64,000 nucleotides of DNA from Sideroxydans lithotrophicus. Its GTDB lineage: Bacteria; Pseudomonadota; Gammaproteobacteria; Burkholderiales; Gallionellaceae. The notes under the pieces were generated by a model. It was not told where the DNA came from, ran no database searches, and was given only the letters and a program-made list of their open reading frames with translations. The translations under genes and the position numbers were made by a program. Below are positions 15,187 through 55,130 of this stretch, in pieces. Within the stretch, counting starts at the first letter, position 1. Each line of letters begins with the position of its first letter. The stretch spans positions 59,003-123,002 of the forward strand of contig DYJI01000007.1 of the NCBI GenBank assembly GCA_020723185.1, read 5' to 3'.

Positions 15187-17298
15187 ATGATGGCCACGAC
15201 TCATACCTGGAGATTCTTCCGTGCAGGCGGTTTCGACCAGGTGCAGCTGGACAGCGGTGCCGACCTGTTGGCGCTGAAAGAACTGGACCAGAAACTGTGG
15301 GTGGCGTTGAGCTGTCCGGTGCATGGCATCGAGTTCGATGGCCGCACGCTGGAGATGATCGACACGGATGGAGACGGTCAGGTACGCGCCAACGAGGTGT
15401 TGGCGGCGATCGCCTGGGCAGGGACGCTGCTGAAAGACGCCGACCTGCTGACCAGGGGGGCGGACAGGCTGATGTTGGCGGATATCAACGACACCACGGC
15501 GGAGGGGCGGCAGGTGCTGGCATCTGCGCGCCTCATCCTGAGCGCGCTCGGCATGCAGGATGCCACCCATATCTCGCTGGCAGATCTGACGGACATCAAT
15601 AACTTCGTGGCCGGTCTGCAGTTCAACGGTGACGGTGTGGTCTGTGCCAAACAGGTCGACGATGCTGGTGTGCGTGCGACGGTTGAGGATATCGTCAAGA
15701 CTGCAGGCTCCTTAGCGGATGCGAGTGGCGAGCAAGGTATCGACCAGGCGATAAGCGACAGATTCTTCGCCGAAGCTGCGGCATATGCCGACTGGTATGC
15801 CCGCGGCGAGGCGGATGCGGGCATTTTGCCGTTGGGGGCGGGCAGCGATGCAGCAGCACAAGCTTTGCAGGCGGTGCGGGGCAAGGTCGATGATCATTTC
15901 GTCCGCTGCCAGTTGGCAGCATACGACGCGCGTGCGGCTGCACCACTGAGTCGCGCGGTAGAGGATTACCAGCACCTGGCGGCGCAGTGTCTGTCCGTAC
16001 AGAACGAGGAGGTGGAAGCTTTCCCGCTGGCGACCGTTGCAGCAGGCGAGCCGCTGGCCCTGCAGGCGGGCATCAATCCGGCGTGGCAGGACAGGATCGA
16101 CGCACTGAGCCAGCTCGTGTTGTTGCCGCTGTTGGGTGAACGAAAAAGTCTGTCAATAGGTGAGTGGCGGGCGCTGTGTGCCCGCTTCGATGCATTCTCC
16201 GACTGGCGGAAGTCGAACCCGGCCCCGCAACTGGACGGGCTGGGCATCGCCCGTGTGCGCGAGATATTGTCATCTGGGCAGCAGGAGCGGATCGATGCGC
16301 TGATCGCGCAAGACAAGGCGCTTGCCCCGGAGATCGAGGCGGTCCACTCGGTAGAGCGTCTGATCCGATATCAGCGAGACTTGTTCAAGCTGGTGAACAA
16401 TTTCGTGTCTTTCCGTGAGTTCTACTCCGGCAGGGGTAAGGCCGTATTCCAGGTCGGCACACTGTATCTGGACGGGCGCAGTTGCGAGCTGTGCGTCAAG
16501 GTGGAGGATGTGAATGCCCATGCGACGTTCGCCAACAGCAGCGGCGTGTGTCTGGTCTATTGCGCACTGGTGCGCAAAGGCGGCGGCGAGAAGATGAACA
16601 TCGCCGCCGCGTTCACGGCAGGCGATTCCGATTTCCTGGCAGTGGGTCGGCACGGGATATTCTATGACCGCAATGGAGACGACTGGAACGCTACCATCCT
16701 GCGCATCAATGACCACCCGATCAGCATCCGCCAGGCTTTCTGGTCGCCATACAAGAAACTTTCCAGGACCATCGCCGAGCAATTGCAGAAGTTCGCCGCC
16801 ACCAAGGCGGGCAAGGTGCAGGACGTGATGGGCAAGACGGTGGCCGGCTCGGTCGAGCCTGCCGCCAAGCCTGCGTTCGATGTCGCCAAGTTCGCCGGTA
16901 TCTTTGCCGCGATCGGGTTGGCCATCGGTGCCATCGGCGGCATCCTGGCATCCGTGGTAGGCGGCATCCTGAGCCTGAAATTCTGGCAGATACCGTTGGC
17001 CGTCCTTGGTCTGATGCTTGCGATCTCGCTGCCTTCGATGACCCTGGCCTGGCTCAAGCTGAAGAAGCGCAATCTCGGCCCCATCCTCGATGCCTGCGGC
17101 TGGGCGATCAACGCGCGCGCATTGATCAACATCCCGTTCGGCACTTCGCTCACCGGGCTGCCCAGGCTGCCGGAGGGCGCGCAGCGCGCGTTGTTCGATC
17201 CTTACGCCGAGCAGCGCCACGCATGGCCGTATCTGCTCGGCCTTTTCTTGCTGACTGCCATGCTGGCCTGGGCGTGGTACGCCGGATATTTTGAATGA
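15187..17298 (+). CDS. Conserved hypothetical 703-aa protein with an EF-hand-like loop and C-terminal TM helices
   Basis: Long ORF with host codon bias and GGAGG RBS; DTDGDGQVRANE 12-residue loop; hydrophobic segments near the C-terminus. Confidence 0.75.
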   Translation: MMATTHTWRFFRAGGFDQVQLDSGADLLALKELDQKLWVALSCPVHGIEFDGRTLEMIDTDGDGQVRANEVLAAIAWAGTLLKDADLLTRGADRLMLADINDTTAEGRQVLASARLILSALGMQDATHISLADLTDINNFVAGLQFNGDGVVCAKQVDDAGVRATVEDIVKTAGSLADASGEQGIDQAISDRFFAEAAAYADWYARGEADAGILPLGAGSDAAAQALQAVRGKVDDHFVRCQLAAYDARAAAPLSRAVEDYQHLAAQCLSVQNEEVEAFPLATVAAGEPLALQAGINPAWQDRIDALSQLVLLPLLGERKSLSIGEWRALCARFDAFSDWRKSNPAPQLDGLGIARVREILSSGQQERIDALIAQDKALAPEIEAVHSVERLIRYQRDLFKLVNNFVSFREFYSGRGKAVFQVGTLYLDGRSCELCVKVEDVNAHATFANSSGVCLVYCALVRKGGGEKMNIAAAFTAGDSDFLAVGRHGIFYDRNGDDWNATILRINDHPISIRQAFWSPYKKLSRTIAEQLQKFAATKAGKVQDVMGKTVAGSVEPAAKPAFDVAKFAGIFAAIGLAIGAIGGILASVVGGILSLKFWQIPLAVLGLMLAISLPSMTLAWLKLKKRNLGPILDACGWAINARALINIPFGTSLTGLPRLPEGAQRALFDPYAEQRHAWPYLLGLFLLTAMLAWAWYAGYFE

Positions 17299-17311
17299 AA
17301 GACCATCGCAA

Positions 17312-18916
17312 ATGAAGATCGCCATCGCGCAAATCAATTGCCTGCTGGGTGATCTGGCGGGCAATGCCGCCAAGATCGCCGACTACGCGGCGCGCGCACG
17401 GGAACAGGGAGCCGGCATCCTGCTCACGCCGGAGATGAGTCTGTGCGGCTATCCGCCGGAAGACCTGCTGCTGCGCGACGGTTTCTACCATGCCTGCCAG
17501 GAGGCGCTGCACAGTCTGGCGCAACAGTTGCAGGGCATCACGGTCGTGGTCGGGCATCCGCACCAGCATGGCGGAGAATGCTACAACGCGGCCTCGGTGC
17601 TGCGTGACGGCGAGATCGTCGCGACCTATCACAAACACGAGTTGCCGAACCACAGTGTGTTCGACGAAGTGCGATACTTCACGCCGGGTTCCCTGCCATG
17701 CGTGTTCGAACTGGAAGGGATCAACTTCGGTATCAATATCTGCGCGGACGTATGGGAACCGCATGCGGCACGGCGTGCCCGTGACGCTGGCGCGCAAGTA
17801 TTGCTGGTGCTGAATGCCTCGCCTTATCACATCGCCAAGGTCGATTCCCGCCACGATGTCGTGCGCGAGCGTATCGCCGCGACCGGCATGCCGGTCGTCT
17901 ACGCCAATCTGGTCGGCGGACAGGACGAGCTGGTGTTCGACGGCGCTTCGTTCGCGATGGACGGCGAGGGCAACATCACCCATCAATTGCCCGCGTTCGA
18001 AGAGCGGCTGGGGCTGGTGGCACTGCAGGATGGACGACCCGCTCCGGGTGAACAGGCCGAGGTGTTGCGCGAGGAAGCCAGCATCTACCGGGCGCTGTGT
18101 CTCGGCGTGCGCGACTACATCACCAAGAACCGTTTCCCAGGCGTGTTGCTGGGGCTATCCGGCGGTATCGATTCCGCGCTGACTCTGGCCGTGGCGGTGG
18201 ATGCGCTGGGGGCGGACAAGGTGCGTGCGGTGATGATGCCGTCACCCTACACGGCGCAGATCAGCATCGACGACTCGCGGGAGATGGTGGGATTGCTCGG
18301 CGTACAGTATGAAGAGCTGGACATCGTGCCGACCTTCGATGCCTTGCAGGATACATTGGCACCATTGTTCAAGGGCTTGCCGCCGGATACCACCGAAGAG
18401 AACCTGCAGGCCCGTATCCGTGGCGTGCTGTTGATGGCGTTGTCCAACAAGACCGGGTCGCTGGTGCTGACCACCGGCAACAAGTCGGAGATGACCGTGG
18501 GCTATGCGACCTTGTACGGCGACATGGCGGGTGGTTTCGCGGTGCTCAAGGATGTGAGCAAGACCTGGGTCTATCGTCTGTCCAACTGGCGCAACGAGCA
18601 GAGTCGCACCATCCCGGAACGCATCATCACCCGTCCGCCCAGCGCGGAGCTGAGGCCGGACCAGACCGATCAGGACAGCCTGCCGCCCTACGATGTGCTG
18701 GACGCCATCATGGCCAGCTATGTGGAGCGTAACGAGTCGATCGCGCAGATCGTGGCTCAGGGTTATGCCGAGGAGGATGTACGCCGTGTGGTGAAGCTGA
18801 TACGCATCGCGGAATACAAGCGACGCCAGGCACCGGTCGGCATCCGCATCACCGACCGCAGCTTCGGCAAGGATTGGCGCTATCCCATCACCGCGCGTTA
18901 TCAGGATGGTTTCTGA
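17312..18916 (+). CDS. nadE: Glutamine-dependent NAD+ synthetase
   Basis: Nitrilase domain (TPEMSLCGYPPEDL, ICADVW) plus LGLSGGIDSAL, NKSE, SAEL...DQD. Confidence 0.95.
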   Translation: MKIAIAQINCLLGDLAGNAAKIADYAARAREQGAGILLTPEMSLCGYPPEDLLLRDGFYHACQEALHSLAQQLQGITVVVGHPHQHGGECYNAASVLRDGEIVATYHKHELPNHSVFDEVRYFTPGSLPCVFELEGINFGINICADVWEPHAARRARDAGAQVLLVLNASPYHIAKVDSRHDVVRERIAATGMPVVYANLVGGQDELVFDGASFAMDGEGNITHQLPAFEERLGLVALQDGRPAPGEQAEVLREEASIYRALCLGVRDYITKNRFPGVLLGLSGGIDSALTLAVAVDALGADKVRAVMMPSPYTAQISIDDSREMVGLLGVQYEELDIVPTFDALQDTLAPLFKGLPPDTTEENLQARIRGVLLMALSNKTGSLVLTTGNKSEMTVGYATLYGDMAGGFAVLKDVSKTWVYRLSNWRNEQSRTIPERIITRPPSAELRPDQTDQDSLPPYDVLDAIMASYVERNESIAQIVAQGYAEEDVRRVVKLIRIAEYKRRQAPVGIRITDRSFGKDWRYPITARYQDGF

Positions 18917-19352
18917 GTCTGCGTAACGTGCTGGCGGCCAGCAGGTGAAAAGGCAGCAGCAGTGCCAACGCGATGCCTAGCCCCTGGTGCCACTGGCTGA
19001 TGGACTCTCGCCAGTCTTCATGCGGCGGGTAATACAGGCAAAGCCCGCTGATGGCCAGTAGCGCCAGTACTGCAGTCAGTAGTAGTCCGTTGCCGCGATT
19101 GCGATGCGCCCGCCAGTTCCCCTGCTGGTGCAGGTTGGACAATCTGCCGACCATCCACACCATCACATACGCAGCGATACCGTGCAGGACCAGCATGCGG
19201 TGCCGCAGCGTATGCAGCGGATCGGTGTAGTCCTGTTCATCCGCCTGCCAGCCCAGCACCATCCACGCCATACCGCTCGCGATCACGACCAGGCTGCATA
19301 TCAGCACCGTATTGCGCGCGAACGGACTCAAGCGTACGCCCCAACTGTTCAT
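18888..19352 (-). CDS. Small polytopic membrane protein with His residues in TM helices (cytochrome b-like)
   Basis: Four hydrophobic segments with LHG, WHQG and FHLL His residues; overlaps the end of the upstream FMN-binding gene. Confidence 0.6.
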   Translation of the reverse strand: MNSWGVRLSPFARNTVLICSLVVIASGMAWMVLGWQADEQDYTDPLHTLRHRMLVLHGIAAYVMVWMVGRLSNLHQQGNWRAHRNRGNGLLLTAVLALLAISGLCLYYPPHEDWRESISQWHQGLGIALALLLPFHLLAASTLRRLRNHPDNAR

Positions 19353-19864
19353 GGCTTTCCCTCCGTTATGGTCTGCTGGTGCAGCAGCAGGGCGAGTCGC
19401 GTCAGCTTCTGCAGCGCGCGGACGGACAAGGTGGCCCCGGAGATGCCGTCGATGTCGCGATCAAGTTGCGTGCCATCAGCCAGCCGGGCACCCGAGAATT
19501 GTGCAGTGAAAGCGGGACTCTTCACTTCCCAGCCGCGACTTTCGCGGTAGACCAGCACGCTTACCTTTTCGACCCTGTCATGGTCAATCACGACGCCGAC
19601 CGTGATCGGCCGTTCCTTGCCGATCTCGTCCAGCACCCAGGCGGTCCGGCTGCCGCTGCGCCAGTATTGCACCCGTACCTGCGGATAGTCGTGCCGCAGG
19701 ATGTCGCGCGCGCGGGTGCGCAGATCGCCGGTGAGCCAGATGTCTCGCGCTTCAGGAGCTTCCTGGAAGGTGGTGGCCAAGAAGGTCGAGACTTCCGCAG
19801 GGGGTTGATCGGCACCAGCGGGGAGCGCCAGACCGAGTAGGATGAGCAAACTGAGCCAGGCCAT
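19349..19864 (-). CDS. Secreted FMN-binding domain protein (flavinylation substrate)
   Basis: Signal peptide MAWLSLLILLGLALPAGA; YRESRGWEV and DGISGATLS ([ST]GA[ST] flavinylation motif). Confidence 0.8.
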   Translation of the reverse strand: MAWLSLLILLGLALPAGADQPPAEVSTFLATTFQEAPEARDIWLTGDLRTRARDILRHDYPQVRVQYWRSGSRTAWVLDEIGKERPITVGVVIDHDRVEKVSVLVYRESRGWEVKSPAFTAQFSGARLADGTQLDRDIDGISGATLSVRALQKLTRLALLLHQQTITEGKP

Positions 19865-47675: not shown

Positions 47676-49700
<2,025 letters not shown>

Positions 49701-49802: not shown

Positions 49803-50912
49803 TTACCCGACTTTTACCCACTCGTCACCACGCACGTCGCGGTAAATTGCGGTGGTGGCAGCATCTTTGTGGCCAGCGATTGCTTGGGCATAATCCCCGC
49901 CTTGGCTCTCGGTGTAGAGTCGGATCGACAGGCTGCGGATTTCGTGGAAAGAGGGCGGGGTTTTGCCGTTCTCCCCCTTGATGCCGGCTAGGTCTCGTGC
50001 ACGGGCGAAACCCTTGGAGATGGTATCCACCCATACCTGATCACCAGGCTTGGATAGCGACCTAGGACGGGTGTGGTGAACAAGCCAGCGGCTGACGATG
50101 TTATCTCGGCATGCTTTGACGGTGGACGACAAGGAGAAACCAGCTATGCAGGTGTCGAGAGGGATGCTGACCTTGTTTTTGGTCTTACCTTGAATGACGT
50201 AGAGCCGATCATCAATCCATGCGGTCGAGTCTTTTCCACGCCGGAATTCGAGGGCTGCGATATCCTCCCTGCGCTGAGAGGTGAGCAAGGCCAGCTCCAT
50301 GGCTCGCGATATCCATGCATCAAGCTTCAAAGCCTGTTCGTAGATAAGCATGAAGTCTGGCAGTGTTAGGCGAGATCGATTGACTACGACTGTGGGCGCT
50401 CGTGTTTTTGCTGCAAGATTGTCTTCAGCCCAGCCTTCCTCAACGGCATCTTTCCAAATGTCCACTGCAGCTGAACGCATTGCTAGAGCCATGCGGGGGC
50501 GATCTTCGTAGCTATCCAGCACCTCTACCAATTGTCGCACCTTGATTTCTGAAAGATGGGTACCGGCCCCCAATGCCTTCTCCCATGCGCGGCCAGTGCT
50601 AGCTTTGTTTTTCAGAGTGTTCGCGGCAAGCTTGCGCTTCTTCTCACACAATTCAAGATGGCGCGACAGTACGCGACCAAATGTTGGAGAGCTTGGTTTG
50701 TTCTCGACGATGGTAGATAGACGCGTTGTGGCAATACTTGCATAGATAGCGCTGTTCAGTGCCATCGTGTCTGCTATTGCCTGCTCTTTGTTGGATCCGA
50801 GACCATGGCGCTTTCCGGAGCGAGGATCGCGATAGGCGTAATACACCTTGCCAGAGGTTTTATCCTCGGTGCGGTATAGATTCATTGGCAAATTGTGACG
50901 ACGTGGCCTCAT
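49803..50912 (-). CDS. int: Lambda-type tyrosine integrase with N-terminal arm-binding domain
   Basis: N-terminal RPRRHNLPMNLY..YYAYRDPRSGK; catalytic R (SQRRED), K, HxxR (FHEIRSL), GH and Y (YRDVRG). Confidence 0.95.
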   Translation of the reverse strand: MRPRRHNLPMNLYRTEDKTSGKVYYAYRDPRSGKRHGLGSNKEQAIADTMALNSAIYASIATTRLSTIVENKPSSPTFGRVLSRHLELCEKKRKLAANTLKNKASTGRAWEKALGAGTHLSEIKVRQLVEVLDSYEDRPRMALAMRSAAVDIWKDAVEEGWAEDNLAAKTRAPTVVVNRSRLTLPDFMLIYEQALKLDAWISRAMELALLTSQRREDIAALEFRRGKDSTAWIDDRLYVIQGKTKNKVSIPLDTCIAGFSLSSTVKACRDNIVSRWLVHHTRPRSLSKPGDQVWVDTISKGFARARDLAGIKGENGKTPPSFHEIRSLSIRLYTESQGGDYAQAIAGHKDAATTAIYRDVRGDEWVKVG

Positions 50913-51127
50913 GCCGCGTGGAGTATTTGCAGTGCGCGTGGTGACATTTCCATATTAGTGCATTGTACAACCACTGGAGTGCGGACCGCATTCTCGTCCA
51001 CCATGTAGCAGGTACCAACTTTTTCGGCGCCTGCAATCTGTCCTGTGGCCGCCCACGAGCGCAATATTCTGATTGATGGAGAGGGGCTATAGTGGCGGCG
51101 CCCCCAGTCTTGAAGGGTGACTTTCAT
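50909..51127 (-). CDS. xis: Excisionase (lambda Xis-like)
   Basis: 72 aa; TLQDWGRRHYSPSPSIRILRSWAATGQI; GGAG RBS; ATGA coupling to int. Confidence 0.85.
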   Translation of the reverse strand: MKVTLQDWGRRHYSPSPSIRILRSWAATGQIAGAEKVGTCYMVDENAVRTPVVVQCTNMEMSPRALQILHAA

Positions 51128-51549: not shown

Positions 51550-51620
51550 GGGTGGCAATACGGGTTGACAGACCGGAACCAAGGAACCGGCAGAGCTTTC
51601 GCTCTCCCACACTGCCACCC
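51550..51620 (-). ncRNA. C4 (P1/P7) / CI (P4)-like antisense RNA
   Basis: Three-way junction: 15-bp closing stem GGGTGGCAGTGTGGG/CCCGTATTGCCACCC, AGAGC-GAAA-GCTCT hairpin, (G)CCGG-loop-CCGG(T) hairpin and single-stranded CTGTCAA. The loop and bulge are complementary to an upstream site. Confidence 0.82.
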
Positions 51621-51644
51621 AATAGGGGGCGTGTTTACGGACAT

Positions 51645-51668
51645 AAAAAAGCCGCGGTGCAGGCGGCT
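51645..51668 (-). terminator. Rho-independent terminator between the antisense target and the antisense RNA
   Basis: Minus strand AGCCGC-CTGCACC-GCGGCT followed by TTTTT. Confidence 0.75.
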
Positions 51669-51674
51669 GATCCG

Positions 51675-51693
51675 CTTGGTTCCGAGCTGTCAA
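51675..51693 (-). promoter_or_regulatory. Antisense target site (a1/b1- or seqA-like)
   Basis: TTGACAG-CTC-GGAACCAAG pairs with CTTGGTTCC-GGT-CTGTCAA of the RNA (18 of 19 positions, including one G-U). Confidence 0.8.
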
Positions 51694-51723
51694 ACTCGAC
51701 CGGCAATTTGTGCTGGCCCGCGC

Positions 51724-51752: not shown

Positions 51753-51886
51753 AAGTGGAAAGGCTCTATCAGGCAACCAATTTGAGGGTAATTTTGGCGG
51801 TAACTCTGATTGCGGTTTTGCTTGCGAGGTAACTGTGTGCGAGCAGCACAGAGAATAGCTTCAGTTGAATTTGAAGCTGAATAACG

Positions 51887-52255
51887 TTATTGGGTCGCCT
51901 GCTTTCTTTGGGTTTGGGGAGCGCCACTATCTCCGTCTGGTTCAGCGAGCGGAGTAATGATTTTGACAGCATCTTTCCGACGGCTTTCGCTCATTGCCTC
52001 CATGATCTTCATTGCCTGGCGAATACTTGGATCAAGCTTCATAGGGCCATCTCCAAGCATCATCCAGCGAGCACTAAACCCAGTGGTTTCCTCGAGCTTG
52101 TATGCATAACGGGGGGCGAAAGACTTAATCAGCCCGGACTGGAGCTGATTCGCAACTGACTTGGACATCCCGCAAAGCTTGCCGAACTCGGTGTCCTCAT
52201 CGATTCCGAGCTCTTGTTTGACGATGGCAATGCGCTCGGGGATTGTTGTTTTCAT
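51887..52255 (-). CDS. CI-like XRE repressor without an S24 peptidase domain
   Basis: 122 aa; N-terminal HTH pattern and FSARWMMLGDG motif; divergent from the cro-like gene. Confidence 0.8.
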   Translation of the reverse strand: MKTTIPERIAIVKQELGIDEDTEFGKLCGMSKSVANQLQSGLIKSFAPRYAYKLEETTGFSARWMMLGDGPMKLDPSIRQAMKIMEAMSESRRKDAVKIITPLAEPDGDSGAPQTQRKQATQ

Positions 52256-52319
52256 GTTTAGACATTAAAACAATTCAAGTTTAGAAGGATTGACTGTCGC
52301 AGGTTTAGTGTTCTACACT
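52256..52319. promoter_or_regulatory. OR-like region with three 16-bp operators and divergent promoters
   Basis: GTTTAG-N4-TAAAAC (52256), GTTTAG-N4-ATTGAC (52279), GTTTAG-N4-CTACAC (52303); rightward promoter TTGACT-N18-TACACT. Confidence 0.8.
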
Positions 52320-52325
52320 GAAAAC

Positions 52326-52547
52326 ATGGACAGCGAGGAACTCAAAAAACATCGGGCACTAATCGAGCAGATAGGCACCGTGCCCCTCATGGTGATGTTC
52401 GACATCAGCAAGGGGGCGATATCTCAATGGCGCAGCAATGGCATCCCAAAGGCTCGCCTGATGTATCTGGAATTGAGTCATCCAGAATTGTTTTCTGACT
52501 CTCCAAAGTCCAAATCGTCAAAAAAGCCACGCAAGGAAACACTATGA
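52326..52547 (+). CDS. Cro-like HTH protein
   Basis: 73 aa; FDISKGAISQWRSNGIPKARLMYL is a typical Cro/transcriptional regulator pattern. Confidence 0.8.
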   Translation: MDSEELKKHRALIEQIGTVPLMVMFDISKGAISQWRSNGIPKARLMYLELSHPELFSDSPKSKSSKKPRKETL

Positions 52548-52783
52548 GTGGCAGCAATACCAGTTTGAACGCGCGCAAATCAGGTGACGGTTGTTTGCTC
52601 AGGTGTCTCCTTCACACGTTATCTGAGTCGCTGCGAGGGGTATGGGTGCCCCGGGCAGTAACACTGCTGCGCGTTCCCCTTTCTAGGTTCGCTCGGAATA
52701 CACAGAGCGAATCACAACCTCAAGACTACAACAAATCATCTCACTGGGTGCTGGTCGCCTCACCATCGAAGGATCATCGATGA
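52544..52783 (+). CDS. Hypothetical 79-aa protein at the cII-equivalent position
   Basis: ATGA overlaps with both cro and rep; no family recognised. Confidence 0.45.
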   Translation: MSGSNTSLNARKSGDGCLLRCLLHTLSESLRGVWVPRAVTLLRVPLSRFARNTQSESQPQDYNKSSHWVLVASPSKDHR

Positions 52784-53874
52784 GGCAAAGGACTATCAGT
52801 GACGACTTCTGGCGCGACTCACAAATATGGGGATTGAGCCAAGAGGATACTGCGACCCTGCTGTATCTACTCACCAGCCCATCCTCCAACATCATCGGCT
52901 GTTACCGCGTGGTGTGGCGGATAGCTGCCGCAGAGATGGGCTGGACCGCCGATCAAATGCTAGTTGTGGTCAAGCGCCTGCAGGAGAAAGACCTCATTGA
53001 ATACACAGATTCAGGCTGGGTCTGGGTGAAGATCTGGTGGCGGCATAACTCCACGGCCGTTGCCCTGAATCCCAAGTCGAAGCTCATCAAGCATGCGCGG
53101 AATCAGTTTGCCGACATCCCAAGAGATTGGCTGGACGCCTTCGGGAAGAGCCTGGAAGCGCTTGGGATCAACACGCGCGAAATCGGGTTTCCAAGCCCCA
53201 TCAAGGCGGCACCAGATGCCCCATCTAATACCCCATCTAATACCCCATCTAATACCCCTTCTGATGCCTCATCACATGCCTCATCAGATGCCTCATCAGA
53301 TGCCTCATCAGATGCCTCATCAGATGCCCCATCGGAAAACGTGAAAACCCATCAACAACGGGGTTTGGATGCCCCATCAGATGCGGCACCAGATGCCCCA
53401 GGGGATGGGGCCGGGGGTAACAGGTATCTGGTATCTGGTAACACCACCACCACAAGCTCCTCCTCCCAAGATGGCAAACCCGTGGTGGTGGTGCCAGATT
53501 TATTTTTTCCACCCCCAACCCCCCAACCCGAGCGTGACTCGATCCAGGCGGTATTGGTCAGCAGCGGTGTCGCCGAGGAATTCTGGCAGATGCTCGTTGA
53601 TGAGCTGTACGGCGCTCGCATGCATCGAGAAATCAGCAATCCGGTGGGCTACATCCGCGGGATGGCCGAACGGGCGATCAGCGGCACCTTTACCCCGGAA
53701 CGCGGCATCAATGTGGCGAAGAAGCGGGAAGAGGCTGCCGCTCAGGCACGGCAAGACGAGGCACAAAACAAGGCATTTCTGGACAGCCAACGCCCAGCAG
53801 ACGAAGTGCTGAGCCGCCTACCAGCTCGCACAAGCGCTTTCTTGGAAAAGATGACGGGAGGACATTCGAAATGA
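52780..53874 (+). CDS. Phage-type replication initiator-like protein
   Basis: N-terminal ISDDFWRD...LLYLLTSPSSNIIGCY...AAAEMG winged-helix pattern; central repeat tract; C-terminal ISNPVGYIRGM. Confidence 0.7.
   Translation: MRQRTISDDFWRDSQIWGLSQEDTATLLYLLTSPSSNIIGCYRVVWRIAAAEMGWTADQMLVVVKRLQEKDLIEYTDSGWVWVKIWWRHNSTAVALNPKSKLIKHARNQFADIPRDWLDAFGKSLEALGINTREIGFPSPIKAAPDAPSNTPSNTPSNTPSDASSHASSDASSDASSDASSDAPSENVKTHQQRGLDAPSDAAPDAPGDGAGGNRYLVSGNTTTTSSSSQDGKPVVVVPDLFFPPPTPQPERDSIQAVLVSSGVAEEFWQMLVDELYGARMHREISNPVGYIRGMAERAISGTFTPERGINVAKKREEAAAQARQDEAQNKAFLDSQRPADEVLSRLPARTSAFLEKMTGGHSK
53215..53400 (+). repeat. Intragenic 12-bp tandem repeats (iteron-like) plus a small inverted repeat
   Basis: Ten in-register units at 53215-53334 (AATACCCCATCT x2-3, GATGCCTCATCA x4-5), then AAACCC...GGGTTT, then further GATGCCCCATCA-like copies from 53368. 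Confidence 0.85.
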
Positions 53875-54179
53875 GCACCACCAATTCCTTGCAAAAGGAC
53901 ATCGTGACGCTGAATCGGCGATTCCTGTTGGTTGTCCAGCAGATGGCCAACGCAAAGCATCCTCTCTTGGCCCCCTGTGTTCCTGGCTGGCTGATGCAGA
54001 AAGTGCGCAACATGACGCTTGAGGAGATCGATGCACTTGCAGAAGACATGATCGCACCTTGCTTCCATCTGAATCTTCAGGAGGGGCACTTCGACCAGAT
54101 GAAAGAGATCCCTCAAGGATCTCGACGCAAGGCGTATTTGGCCAATGTGGTCGCCACTCACTCGGCTTCCCATGCTTAA
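53871..54179 (+). CDS. FlhD-like activator subunit (SetD/AcaD analogue)
   Basis: DIVTLNRRFLLVVQQMA...MTLEEIDALA...CFHL pattern; precedes the FlhC-like gene. Confidence 0.72.
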   Translation: MSTTNSLQKDIVTLNRRFLLVVQQMANAKHPLLAPCVPGWLMQKVRNMTLEEIDALAEDMIAPCFHLNLQEGHFDQMKEIPQGSRRKAYLANVVATHSASHA

Positions 54180-54675
54180 CGAGACCATTGCACAAACGCA
54201 GGCTTTTGCCACGACCCTGATCAGGGATGGCATGCGCATAGCGCTTGTGCACTCCATTACCGGAATTGCCCGGCACCATCTGCTGGATTTGCGCAAATCG
54301 ATACATGGGGACGATGCGCCGATGCAGGGGCGGATGCCGAACGACACCATGGCGTACATCAAGAGCGGCCAGTCCACAGTTGCGCTCGCGACGGTGGTTG
54401 CGGTGTACGTTGGGGCAGAGAAAAAACACAAGTCGCCGGTTGAAGCGTTTATGGACGCATGGGCGGTGGCAAAGTTGTTTGCAGATGGCGCGACTCCGCT
54501 GGACATCAATGCCGCTTGGTATGCGGTGCGCGATGTCAAAGCCGGCCTGATTACATGGGCCTACTGCAAAAACTGCAAGGCAGGGTATCTACTCGATACC
54601 AAGCAAACAAAAAAGACAGACATCTGTCCTTACTGCGGCGCTCAGAAACAAAAGCAGATCGAGGTGGCCCAGTGA
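54172..54675 (+). CDS. FlhC-like activator subunit (SetC/AcaC analogue)
   Basis: GMRIALVHSITG N-terminus, LDINAAWY, C-terminal Zn site CKNC...CPYC. Confidence 0.8.
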   Translation: MLNETIAQTQAFATTLIRDGMRIALVHSITGIARHHLLDLRKSIHGDDAPMQGRMPNDTMAYIKSGQSTVALATVVAVYVGAEKKHKSPVEAFMDAWAVAKLFADGATPLDINAAWYAVRDVKAGLITWAYCKNCKAGYLLDTKQTKKTDICPYCGAQKQKQIEVAQ

Positions 54676-55130
54676 GCGCGCTCAACTCTTTCAGACTGCT
54701 GGCCATAGCCATGTGCTTCTTCAGCGCTGGCGCATTCGCAGACGACCCAATGTGCTTCGAGAAGGCCTCCGAGCGTTATGGGGTGCCAGCAGAACTGCTA
54801 CGGGCAATCTCTCATGTGGAATCGCGTGGCAATCCTCACGCGAGAAACGAAAACAAGAACGGCTCAACCGACATCGGCCATATGCAGATCAATTCGTCCT
54901 GGCTGCCGACTCTCTCCAAGTATGGGATTTCCAAAGCTCAATTGATTGAGGCATGCACCAATACATTTGTTGGTGCATGGATCTTGGCCGACAACATTTT
55001 CCGCATGGGATATCGGTGGGAAGCCATCGGCGCATACAACGCAAGGAACCCAGCCAAGGCCGCCCGCTATGCAAGGAAGGTGGCTGCGGCATTGCATGCA
55101 CAAACCAGACAAACAGGGGCTCTGAAGTGA
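54672..55130 (+). CDS. Soluble lytic transglycosylase (LtgX-like)
   Basis: LLRAISHVESRG, DIGHMQINS, AIGAYN. Confidence 0.92.
   Translation: MSALNSFRLLAIAMCFFSAGAFADDPMCFEKASERYGVPAELLRAISHVESRGNPHARNENKNGSTDIGHMQINSSWLPTLSKYGISKAQLIEACTNTFVGAWILADNIFRMGYRWEAIGAYNARNPAKAARYARKVAAALHAQTRQTGALK

Follow-up and report, generated by a model that had tools for sequence, protein, structure and literature searches.

Can an integrative and conjugative element (ICE) carry its vegetative origin of replication (oriV) inside the gene for its own initiator? The question is raised by a locus in a 64-kb stretch of Sideroxydans lithotrophicus DNA, hereafter the window, in which an ICE carries a gene that we call rep (positions 52780-53874, + strand). 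Its 364-residue product has a winged-helix N-domain, a disordered linker and a helical C-domain, and the DNA coding for the linker contains a tandem array of 12-bp units. A preliminary description of this DNA had interpreted the locus as a possible theta origin within an ICE, a reading that sequence analysis, within its reach, supports. We consider it fairly probable that the region 53215-53510 is the oriV of the element, placed inside its own initiator gene in the style of lambda O and SPP1 gp38. Binding of Rep to the 11-mer shared by the units, unwinding, helicase recruitment and replication itself are what we infer from this arrangement.

A 12-bp Array Inside the rep Gene

Read in frame, the left iteron array (53215-53334, + strand) consists of ten in-register 12-bp units, as had been stated before, and Tandem Repeats Finder reported period-12 arrays at 53219-53273 and 53263-53333. 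Where the preliminary description distinguished two sub-types of unit, in-frame reading gives three. The units GATGCCCCATCT and GATGCCCCATCG, both encoding the peptide DAPS, are present once each, AATACCCC(A/T)TCT (NTPS) is present three times, and (G/C)ATGCCTCATCA (DASS or HASS) five times. Their core is the 11-mer (G/C/A)AT(G/A)CC(C/T)C(A/T)TC, with the dyad GATG-N3-CATC, and residues 146-212 of Rep are the translation of the array.

The array is followed by the expected A-rich spacer (53335-53367, + strand) with its 6-bp inverted repeat, AAACCC at 53345-53350 and GGGTTT at 53361-53366. This inverted repeat is kept in related clades; in one homologous locus (L041) it reads AAACAC/GTGTTT, with both arms altered. 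Beyond the spacer lies a smaller right iteron group (53368-53414, + strand). Further copies of GATGCC(C/T)CATC had been claimed to about position 53400, and the extent of the group agrees with this; however, only one copy is exact (GATGCCCCATC, 53368-53378), the others being two degenerate direct copies (GATGCGGCACC at 53380 and GATGCCCCAGG at 53392) and one degenerate inverted, partial copy (GATGGGGCC at 53404). Allowing up to one mismatch, GATGCCYCATC has 10 matches in the window, 8 of them within 164 bp, compared to about 4.8 expected window-wide. The clustering of these sites is far beyond chance.

A scan for promoters and terminators placed no site within the array, and its counts of promoter-like sites and terminators were at chance level. 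An Rfam scan of 51-55 kb gave nothing real in the array; its isrG match, at 14.5 bits, is noise. Compared with plasmid sequences at blastn sensitivity, positions 51800-54700 gave no match.

The array also leaves a mark on assemblies. In all four metagenome runs examined, contigs start or end at 53299-53305, inside identical DASS units, and one genome contig (L028) stops inside the homologous rep gene, at residue 52. Because the array breaks short-read assemblies, genes of the rep family can be expected to be truncated often at contig ends.

Conservation of the Array in Homologous Genes

The homologue set comprised 82 related proteins and 94 loci from genomes and metagenomes, mostly of Gallionellaceae, Sideroxydans and other Betaproteobacteria, and the motif was tested in 36 distinct full-length homologous genes. 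The pattern [GC]AT[GA]C[CG]N[CT]AT[CT] is present in every one of the 36, in 1-11 copies at nucleotides ~384-624 of the gene, at a density to be compared with 0-0.27 copies/kb (both strands) in the remaining 1.5-63 kb of each source. The 11-mer is found in reading frames 0, 1 and 2 (L003, L007, L008 and L012) and on the opposite strand in L043, L008, L006 and L051, and its copies are spaced by 11 or 12 bp. A peptide repeat cannot explain this independence of frame and strand combined with 11-bp spacing, whereas DNA sites one helical turn apart can; the reading of the array as a peptide repeat and nothing else is ruled out by the motif being present in three frames and on both strands.

Synonymous sites point in the same direction. 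For diverged pairs, the linker has a synonymous codon identity of 0.663 and the two folded domains one of 0.406; none of 5000 column permutations was as extreme. Amino-acid identity across Rep, on the other hand, is lowest in the linker. The opposite outcome, namely homologues that conserve a mere disordered linker with synonymous divergence, was tested for and is not what the alignments contain. It had also been claimed that the units are more similar as DNA than their peptide requires. This is true in the window, where recent slippage would trivially explain it, and the meaningful version of the claim holds among the homologues.

Repeat number varies, as had been anticipated, with 4 to 11 pattern matches among close relatives (4 in L035, 7 in L034, 8 in L036, 8 in the window and 11 in L041). 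The difference between L034 and L035 is exactly three GATGCCCCATCG units. Distant relatives that have the N-domain alone in common carry pairs of GATAGGGTATC at nucleotides ~384/395, and the peptide DRVSIGY in these proteins is the literal translation of such a pair. Judged from these comparisons, the array is a DNA element conserved as DNA, not a peptide repeat, and the linker peptide (DAPS/NTPS/DASS...TTTT...VVVV...DLFF) is most likely in large part the read-through translation of DNA signals.

Signals Downstream of the Array

Between the right iteron group and the C-domain coding region lie several further signals. The 7-bp tandem GGTATCT GGTATCT GGTAAC (53423-53442, + strand) encodes the conserved peptide RYLVSGN, and this region is conserved in homologues whose Rep is about 49-90% identical. 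An inverted repeat with 18-nt arms and a 31-nt loop is formed by ATCTGGTAACACCACCAC (53433-53450, + strand) and GTGGTGGTGGTGCCAGAT (53482-53499, + strand). Its (ACC)n/(GTG)n arms encode TTTT and VVVV and are invariant among homologues, where the loop measures 21-177 nt; folded as single-stranded DNA, the repeat has a free energy of -16.7 kcal/mol (z -4.3). The T-rich block GATTTATTTTTTCC (53497-53510, + strand; 14 bp) encodes DLFFP and is a candidate unwinding element.

Extreme codon bias maintains both of these elements, the inverted repeat as well as the T-rich block. In 15 diverged homologues, GTG accounts for 98% of the valine codons of the VVV block vs 23% in the rest of these genes. Leucine in the DLIF block is encoded by TTA or TTG in 100% of cases (background 31%), isoleucine by ATT or ATA in 100% (background 48%), and aspartate by GAT in 94% (background 54%).

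We also considered that the (ACC)n/(GTG)n repeat may act as an RNA hairpin only; with its invariant arms, the repeat shows no covariation that would support this. At the matching position before the (ACC)n arm, the L007-L017 clade carries ATATTCA twice inside an AT-rich stretch. The shared tandem layout, with differing letters (GGTATCT vs ATATTCA), may mark the true unwinding site.

Architecture and Relatives of the Rep Protein

In an AlphaFold2 model built on a 29-sequence alignment, residues 4-140 form a confident winged-helix N-domain, residues 143-238 have a predicted local distance difference test (pLDDT) score <50 and are disordered, and a helical C-domain begins at about residue 245, with confident helices at 249-336. 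It is the disordered segment that the repeats code for. PHROG and tblastn matches and the alignment support an N-domain coding region at 52780-53199 (+ strand; residues 1-140), which would encode the putative origin-binding domain. The C-domain coding region (53512-53871, + strand; residues 245-364) is defined by the AlphaFold2 model and by sub-threshold profile matches. There are 65 invariant alignment columns, mostly in the N-domain.

The designation of Rep as a phage-type initiator in the preliminary description agrees well with its N-domain. Residues 3-93 match PHROG 1701 ("DnaD-like helicase loader", E 6.5e-16), and the domain also matches PHROG 6251 ("replisome organizer", E 6.6e-9). Phage proteins found by tblastn, 25-37% identical, are annotated as DnaD-domain, replication or replisome-organizer proteins. 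Foldseek matches in BFVD are viral replisome organizers, plus a weak "lambda GpO N-terminal" entry (E 0.02). In a library of 1.8 billion proteins, 1425 cluster representatives match the N-domain at E <=1e-3, and 84 do so at E <=1e-10. In the PDB, a sequence profile search gave nothing meaningful (best E 1.4), and Foldseek returned generic winged-helix regulators alone (E >=0.1).

The C-domain resembles two families at a distance. It matches Pfam RP-C_C below threshold in 20 of the 29 aligned members (17.2 bits against a cut-off of 32.6, residues 282-310), and NCBIfam STY4528_fam (NF040582) at 27.4 bits against a cut-off of 130 (profile positions 174-322), with 27 of the 29 members alike. The former models the C-terminus of RepC from repABC plasmids, the latter a family of replication proteins from pathogenicity islands. 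Pfam Phage_rep_O gave no match, the RP-C_C match being the sole one in Pfam. No DnaD, DnaB_2 or phage C-terminal domain, and no Rep_3 or RepA family, was matched in Pfam or NCBIfam. The protein is labelled hypothetical in its sources and has no Pfam family.

Pairing of Iteron Type and Rep Sequence

Two types of iteron, GATGCCCCATC and GATACCCTATC, are found among the homologues. What distinguishes the two are positions 4 and 8, a mirror-related pair within the palindrome, and mixed forms are a small minority. The iteron type tracks Rep residues ~92-104, which read VALNPxSKLIxHA with the G..C type and GAFSP--KLLxNA with the A..T type; L003 and L023 are intermediate in this pairing. Such pairing is suggestive, as it would be expected if a dimeric DNA-binding protein had evolved together with its site.

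The Element and Its Switch-Controlled Operon

That rep belongs to an ICE, as had been proposed, is borne out by integrase and excisionase genes beside uvrB, a step in G+C content and F-type transfer genes (TraL, E, K, B, V, C, F, H and G). The uvrB gene ends at 49700, and G+C content falls from ~0.60 to ~0.53 at ~49.8 kb. At this left end of the element lie the tyrosine integrase gene (49803-50912, - strand), next to uvrB, and the excisionase gene xis (50909-51127, - strand). A cI-like repressor gene (51887-52255, - strand; PHROG 4/8/2328 transcriptional repressor) is divergent from the rep operon, whose first gene encodes a small cro-like DNA-binding protein (52290-52547, + strand; PHROG 8008, weak P22_Cro). 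A lone promoter-like site, sigma-70-like, is found at the cro-like gene (52290-52319).

Downstream, rep overlaps a gene labelled FlhD-like from its position alone (53871-54179, + strand), which is followed by an FlhC-like gene (54145-54675, + strand) with a Pfam match to FlhC (E 1.2e-11). Next come genes for a lytic transglycosylase (SLT), an OmpA-like protein, pilin, TraL, TraE, TraK, TraB, DsbC, TraV and TraC, with TraF, TraH and TraG beyond the end of the window. The order rep-flhD-flhC-SLT-OmpA-pilin-TraL-TraE is kept in those full-length homologues whose contigs reach that far, and homologous loci are found in chromosomal contigs of up to 892 kb. The wider order, from int-xis and the repressor through (cro)-rep-flhDC to the type IV secretion genes, is likewise conserved. 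Relaxase and coupling-protein genes were not seen in the sequence read and lie beyond it. Apart from Tra genes, the 10 kb past the window end contain just a MazE/PIN pair and a restriction enzyme of Type ISP, with no partition or helicase gene. In the distant clade L011, rep is preceded by int, a DUF4224 Xis-like gene, Bro-N, DUF7673 and a helix-turn-helix repressor gene, and helicase, primase or partition genes were not found next to it.

Because the genes are arranged as repressor, cro-like, leader, rep and flhDC, rep would be expressed from a lysogeny-type switch. By this gene order no other large gene precedes it in the operon that the switch of the ICE controls, and it is predicted to be expressed with the master activator. 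The leader is a conserved structured element of ~110 nt with four helices, between the cro-like gene and rep (52567-52676, + strand). It is more conserved than the flanking genes, 97% of its alignment cells are paired, and 6 pairs show compensatory changes. Its covariation is 0.226 vs 0.156 in shuffles (0/500), and slid controls gave <=0.10. G-U pairs place the structure on the + (sense) strand, hence the element is probably the leader RNA of the rep-flhDC operon. It has no Rfam match. One of its hairpins, GAGGGGTATGGGTGCCCC, contains the iteron-like sequence GGGGTAT.

An open reading frame of 79 residues, orf79 (52544-52783, + strand), overlaps both of its neighbours by ATGA and has tblastn matches in homologous loci. 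It coincides with the structured element and has an odd composition, and its apparent conservation may be that of nucleotides rather than coding.

Comparison With Known Replicons

In phage lambda, the origin lies in the part of the O gene that encodes the flexible linker between the N-terminal origin-binding and the C-terminal recruiting domains. The lambda iterons, to which O binds as a dimer, are internally dyad-symmetric, and A+T-rich DNA and an inverted repeat lie to one side. The locus described here shares the placement of iterons in linker-coding DNA, the dyad symmetry, a flanking inverted repeat and a cI/cro-type switch. It differs in having 11-12 bp units in 1-11 copies instead of four 19-bp iterons, a T-rich block of 14 bp, flhDC where lambda has a P-like loader gene downstream, and a conjugative element rather than a phage as its host. 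The origin of repABC plasmids is also inside a gene, repC. RepC and STY4528 share with Rep a weak but recurrent similarity in the C-domain, whereas their N-domains are unrelated by our searches.

In phage SPP1, the direct repeats of oriL and an AT-rich unwinding element lie within gene 38 and are bound by gp38 (PMC6316719). The resemblance extends to a homologous N-domain, through the PHROG 1701 match given above, and to repeats within the initiator's own gene. However, loader (gp39) and helicase (gp40) genes follow in SPP1 and none are seen here. The C-domain also sets Rep apart from gp38 and other DnaD-like organizers, as it is not DnaD-like and weakly resembles those of RepC and STY4528.

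Among integrative elements, SGI1 has a rep gene and an iteron-based oriV adjacent to xis, under the control of the FlhDC-type activator AcaCD/SgaCD (PMC7433901), and its initiator has been assigned to the Rep_3 superfamily in a review (PMC5704250) and described as having a RepA_C domain in the SGI1 study (PMC7433901). Both elements thus combine an iteron theta replicon, putative in our case, located near int/xis, with its activation along with excision by an FlhDC-type activator. In SGI1, however, four 17-bp iterons and a DnaA box lie downstream of the gene, whereas the iterons here are intragenic and have no DnaA box. Moreover, SGI1 is an integrative mobilizable island, while the present element has its own F-type transfer genes and a replisome-organizer-like initiator. 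The ICEs TnGBS1 and TnGBS2 have dedicated theta replication independent of the relaxase, and streptococcal and clostridial integrative and mobilizable elements have been annotated with replisome-organizer genes (PMC5704250). These are Firmicutes elements with other mating-pair-formation types, in contrast to the F-type found here, and in those of the F type, a survey of ICEs detected no theta-replication proteins (PMC5587801). The preliminary description had set a theta origin against the rolling-circle replication usual for ICEs. That contrast is less sharp than implied, theta replication being known for TnGBS1/2 and SGI1. Origin-in-initiator replicons and theta replication of integrated mobile elements are thus known already; what is new here is the unannotated protein family, the F-type ICE setting, and how clearly the linker "motifs" can be recognised as DNA signals.

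SXT/R391 elements share the order of the regulatory module (setR-croS-...-setDC): repressor, cro-like gene, N-domain homologue (WP_024015941.1), lytic transglycosylase, FlhD/FlhC-type activators and F-type transfer genes. In R997 (NZ_KY433363.1; L095), a hypothetical protein of 289 residues is encoded at 1386-2255, directly after setR/croS, and its N-domain aligns with that of Rep (hhalign probability 96%, E 4.9e-9). Downstream come DUF6475, SLT, FlhD and FlhC genes, in agreement with the module order of the window. The R997 protein, which has no known function, differs in its C-terminal half. No central tandem array was found in its gene, which has AGCAATCAYC three times, 26-27 bp apart, near the 3' end.

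A Putative Origin and Its Alternatives

If the region is an origin, it could work as follows. Relief of cI-like repression would allow transcription of the rightward operon, which comprises the cro-like gene, leader, rep and flhDC. Rep and the master activator for excision and transfer would therefore be produced at the same time. Dimers of its N-domain would bind the dyad-symmetric GATG-N3-CATC 11-mers, spaced 11-12 bp, or one helical turn, apart, with the large left group and the small right group providing the binding sites. Strain imposed on the neighbouring DNA by the resulting nucleoprotein complex would open the (ACC)n/(GTG)n repeat and GATTTATTTTTTCC, and the helical C-domain would recruit a host helicase or helicase loader for theta replication of the excised circle.

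Several observations weigh against this reading. Contigs of the element have approximately chromosomal depth in the four metagenome runs (~1.1x in X2 and <=1 in X5), these being assembler depths from uninduced communities, with contigs that break at 53299-53305. No helicase-loader or helicase gene was found beside rep, where the next gene is FlhD-like. No DnaA box (<=1 mismatch) was found in 51-55 kb, nor any long A+T-rich stretch around rep, the T-rich block being merely 14 bp long. Every match of Rep to the curated replication families of Pfam and NCBIfam is below cut-off. The co-variation of Rep and iterons is suggestive because the switch of iteron type was probably one or two evolutionary events, and hence offers no statistical proof. 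The replication demonstrated for SXT/R391 depends on TraI and the origin of transfer (oriT) and is of the rolling-circle type (PMC4489591), and the N-domain homologue of R997 has neither a known function nor a central repeat array.

The main alternative is that the 11-mers are operator or titration sites, at which Rep or another protein would throttle read-through into flhDC, or autoregulate, with no initiation involved. In that role they would set the timing of transfer activation or control its dosage. The position of rep, directly upstream of and overlapping the flhD-like gene in one operon, fits such a role, and so do the iteron-like GGGGTAT in the conserved leader hairpin upstream of rep, the SXT/R391 homologue that sits in the same regulatory operon of elements with TraI/oriT-dependent replication, and the failure to find a DnaA box, a loader gene or a depth excess. 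However, the phage homologues of the N-domain are replication proteins, and the C-domain resembles replication proteins alone. A roadblock, moreover, needs neither a conserved inverted repeat nor a T-rich block fixed by codon bias. Taken together, we regard this explanation as unlikely. Iteron arrays commonly double as origin and as autoregulatory or handcuffing sites, so control of transcription may be an added role of the array.

Alternatively, the array might serve in partition. With some ten units that recur every 11-12 bp, about once per helical turn, it resembles parC-type centromeres as known from type II partition systems. Such a centromere, or else a site for an oriT accessory protein, would be hosted in a tolerant linker and recognised by a protein whose gene lies elsewhere in the element. 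SXT/R391 ICEs do carry a partition system of this type, srpMRC (PMC4489591). Yet no partition or relaxase gene was found in the 14 kb of the element that lie inside the window or in the next 10 kb, the motif stays in the rep gene even in relatives that have the N-domain alone in common and other C-termini, and the site type tracks residues of Rep itself, all of which makes a partition or oriT function quite improbable. Lower still do we rate the idea that the array simply codes for a disordered linker of low complexity, its length changing through replication slippage, and has no function at the DNA level. The disorder predicted by AlphaFold2 at residues 143-238, the different unit numbers of near-identical elements and the assemblies that break inside the array would all be expected from it. 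On the other side stand the maintenance of the motif in three frames and both orientations, with an 11-bp spacing that destroys the peptide repeat, the higher synonymous identity in the linker than in the folded domains, and the extreme codon bias of the VVV and DLIF blocks. By the frame and strand, synonymous and codon-bias results, slippage without function appears already contradicted and very improbable indeed.

Implications

ICEs were long held to be non-replicating, and the replication shown for them is mostly from oriT by the relaxase. It is possible, if rather doubtful, that the genes described here represent an unrecognised lineage of theta replicons on F-type, SXT-like ICEs, in which the peptide motifs of the linker (DAPS, DRVSIGY, TTTT, VVVV and DLIF) would be by-products of DNA signals. 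Were this the case, the paired switch from GATGCCCCATC to GATACCCTATC and of Rep residues 92-104 would define specificity or incompatibility groups. The N-domain homologue located after croS in SXT/R391 would then be either a relic or an unnoticed member of the same initiator lineage, and a second, relaxase-independent replication route would be implied in these elements.

The rep family is spread across Gallionellaceae and other Betaproteobacteria, with an N-domain relative in SXT/R391, and the candidate initiator and origin fit in one 1.1-kb fragment. The locus also appears to be a case of overlapping codes, in which protein-level "conservation" in a disordered linker is the shadow of predicted DNA binding sites. 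Caution is therefore advisable when linker motifs or variation in repeat number are read as features of the protein.

Additional Observations on the Element

A C4 antisense RNA match (RF01695) lies at 51550-51627 (- strand), with 51 bits against a gathering score of 45, and an isrK-like match at 51645-51717 (- strand) has 37 bits, below its gathering score of 50. Together they correspond to the antisense immunity RNA pair of the P1/P7 type; the pair precedes orf95, xis and int in the leftward operon.

In one homologous locus (L032; Ga0172380_10020924), int and xis abut rep, which runs into the SLT region, and cI/cro and flhDC are missing. Its Rep ends in "...FPKLN", and the locus looks like a deletion derivative of the element. 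In L096, beyond the right end of the window, the genes that follow TraG (16326-19665) are cargo or defence genes; they encode a toxin-antitoxin pair (MazE/PIN), a Sel1-repeat protein and a restriction-modification enzyme of Type ISP, ~1600 residues long.

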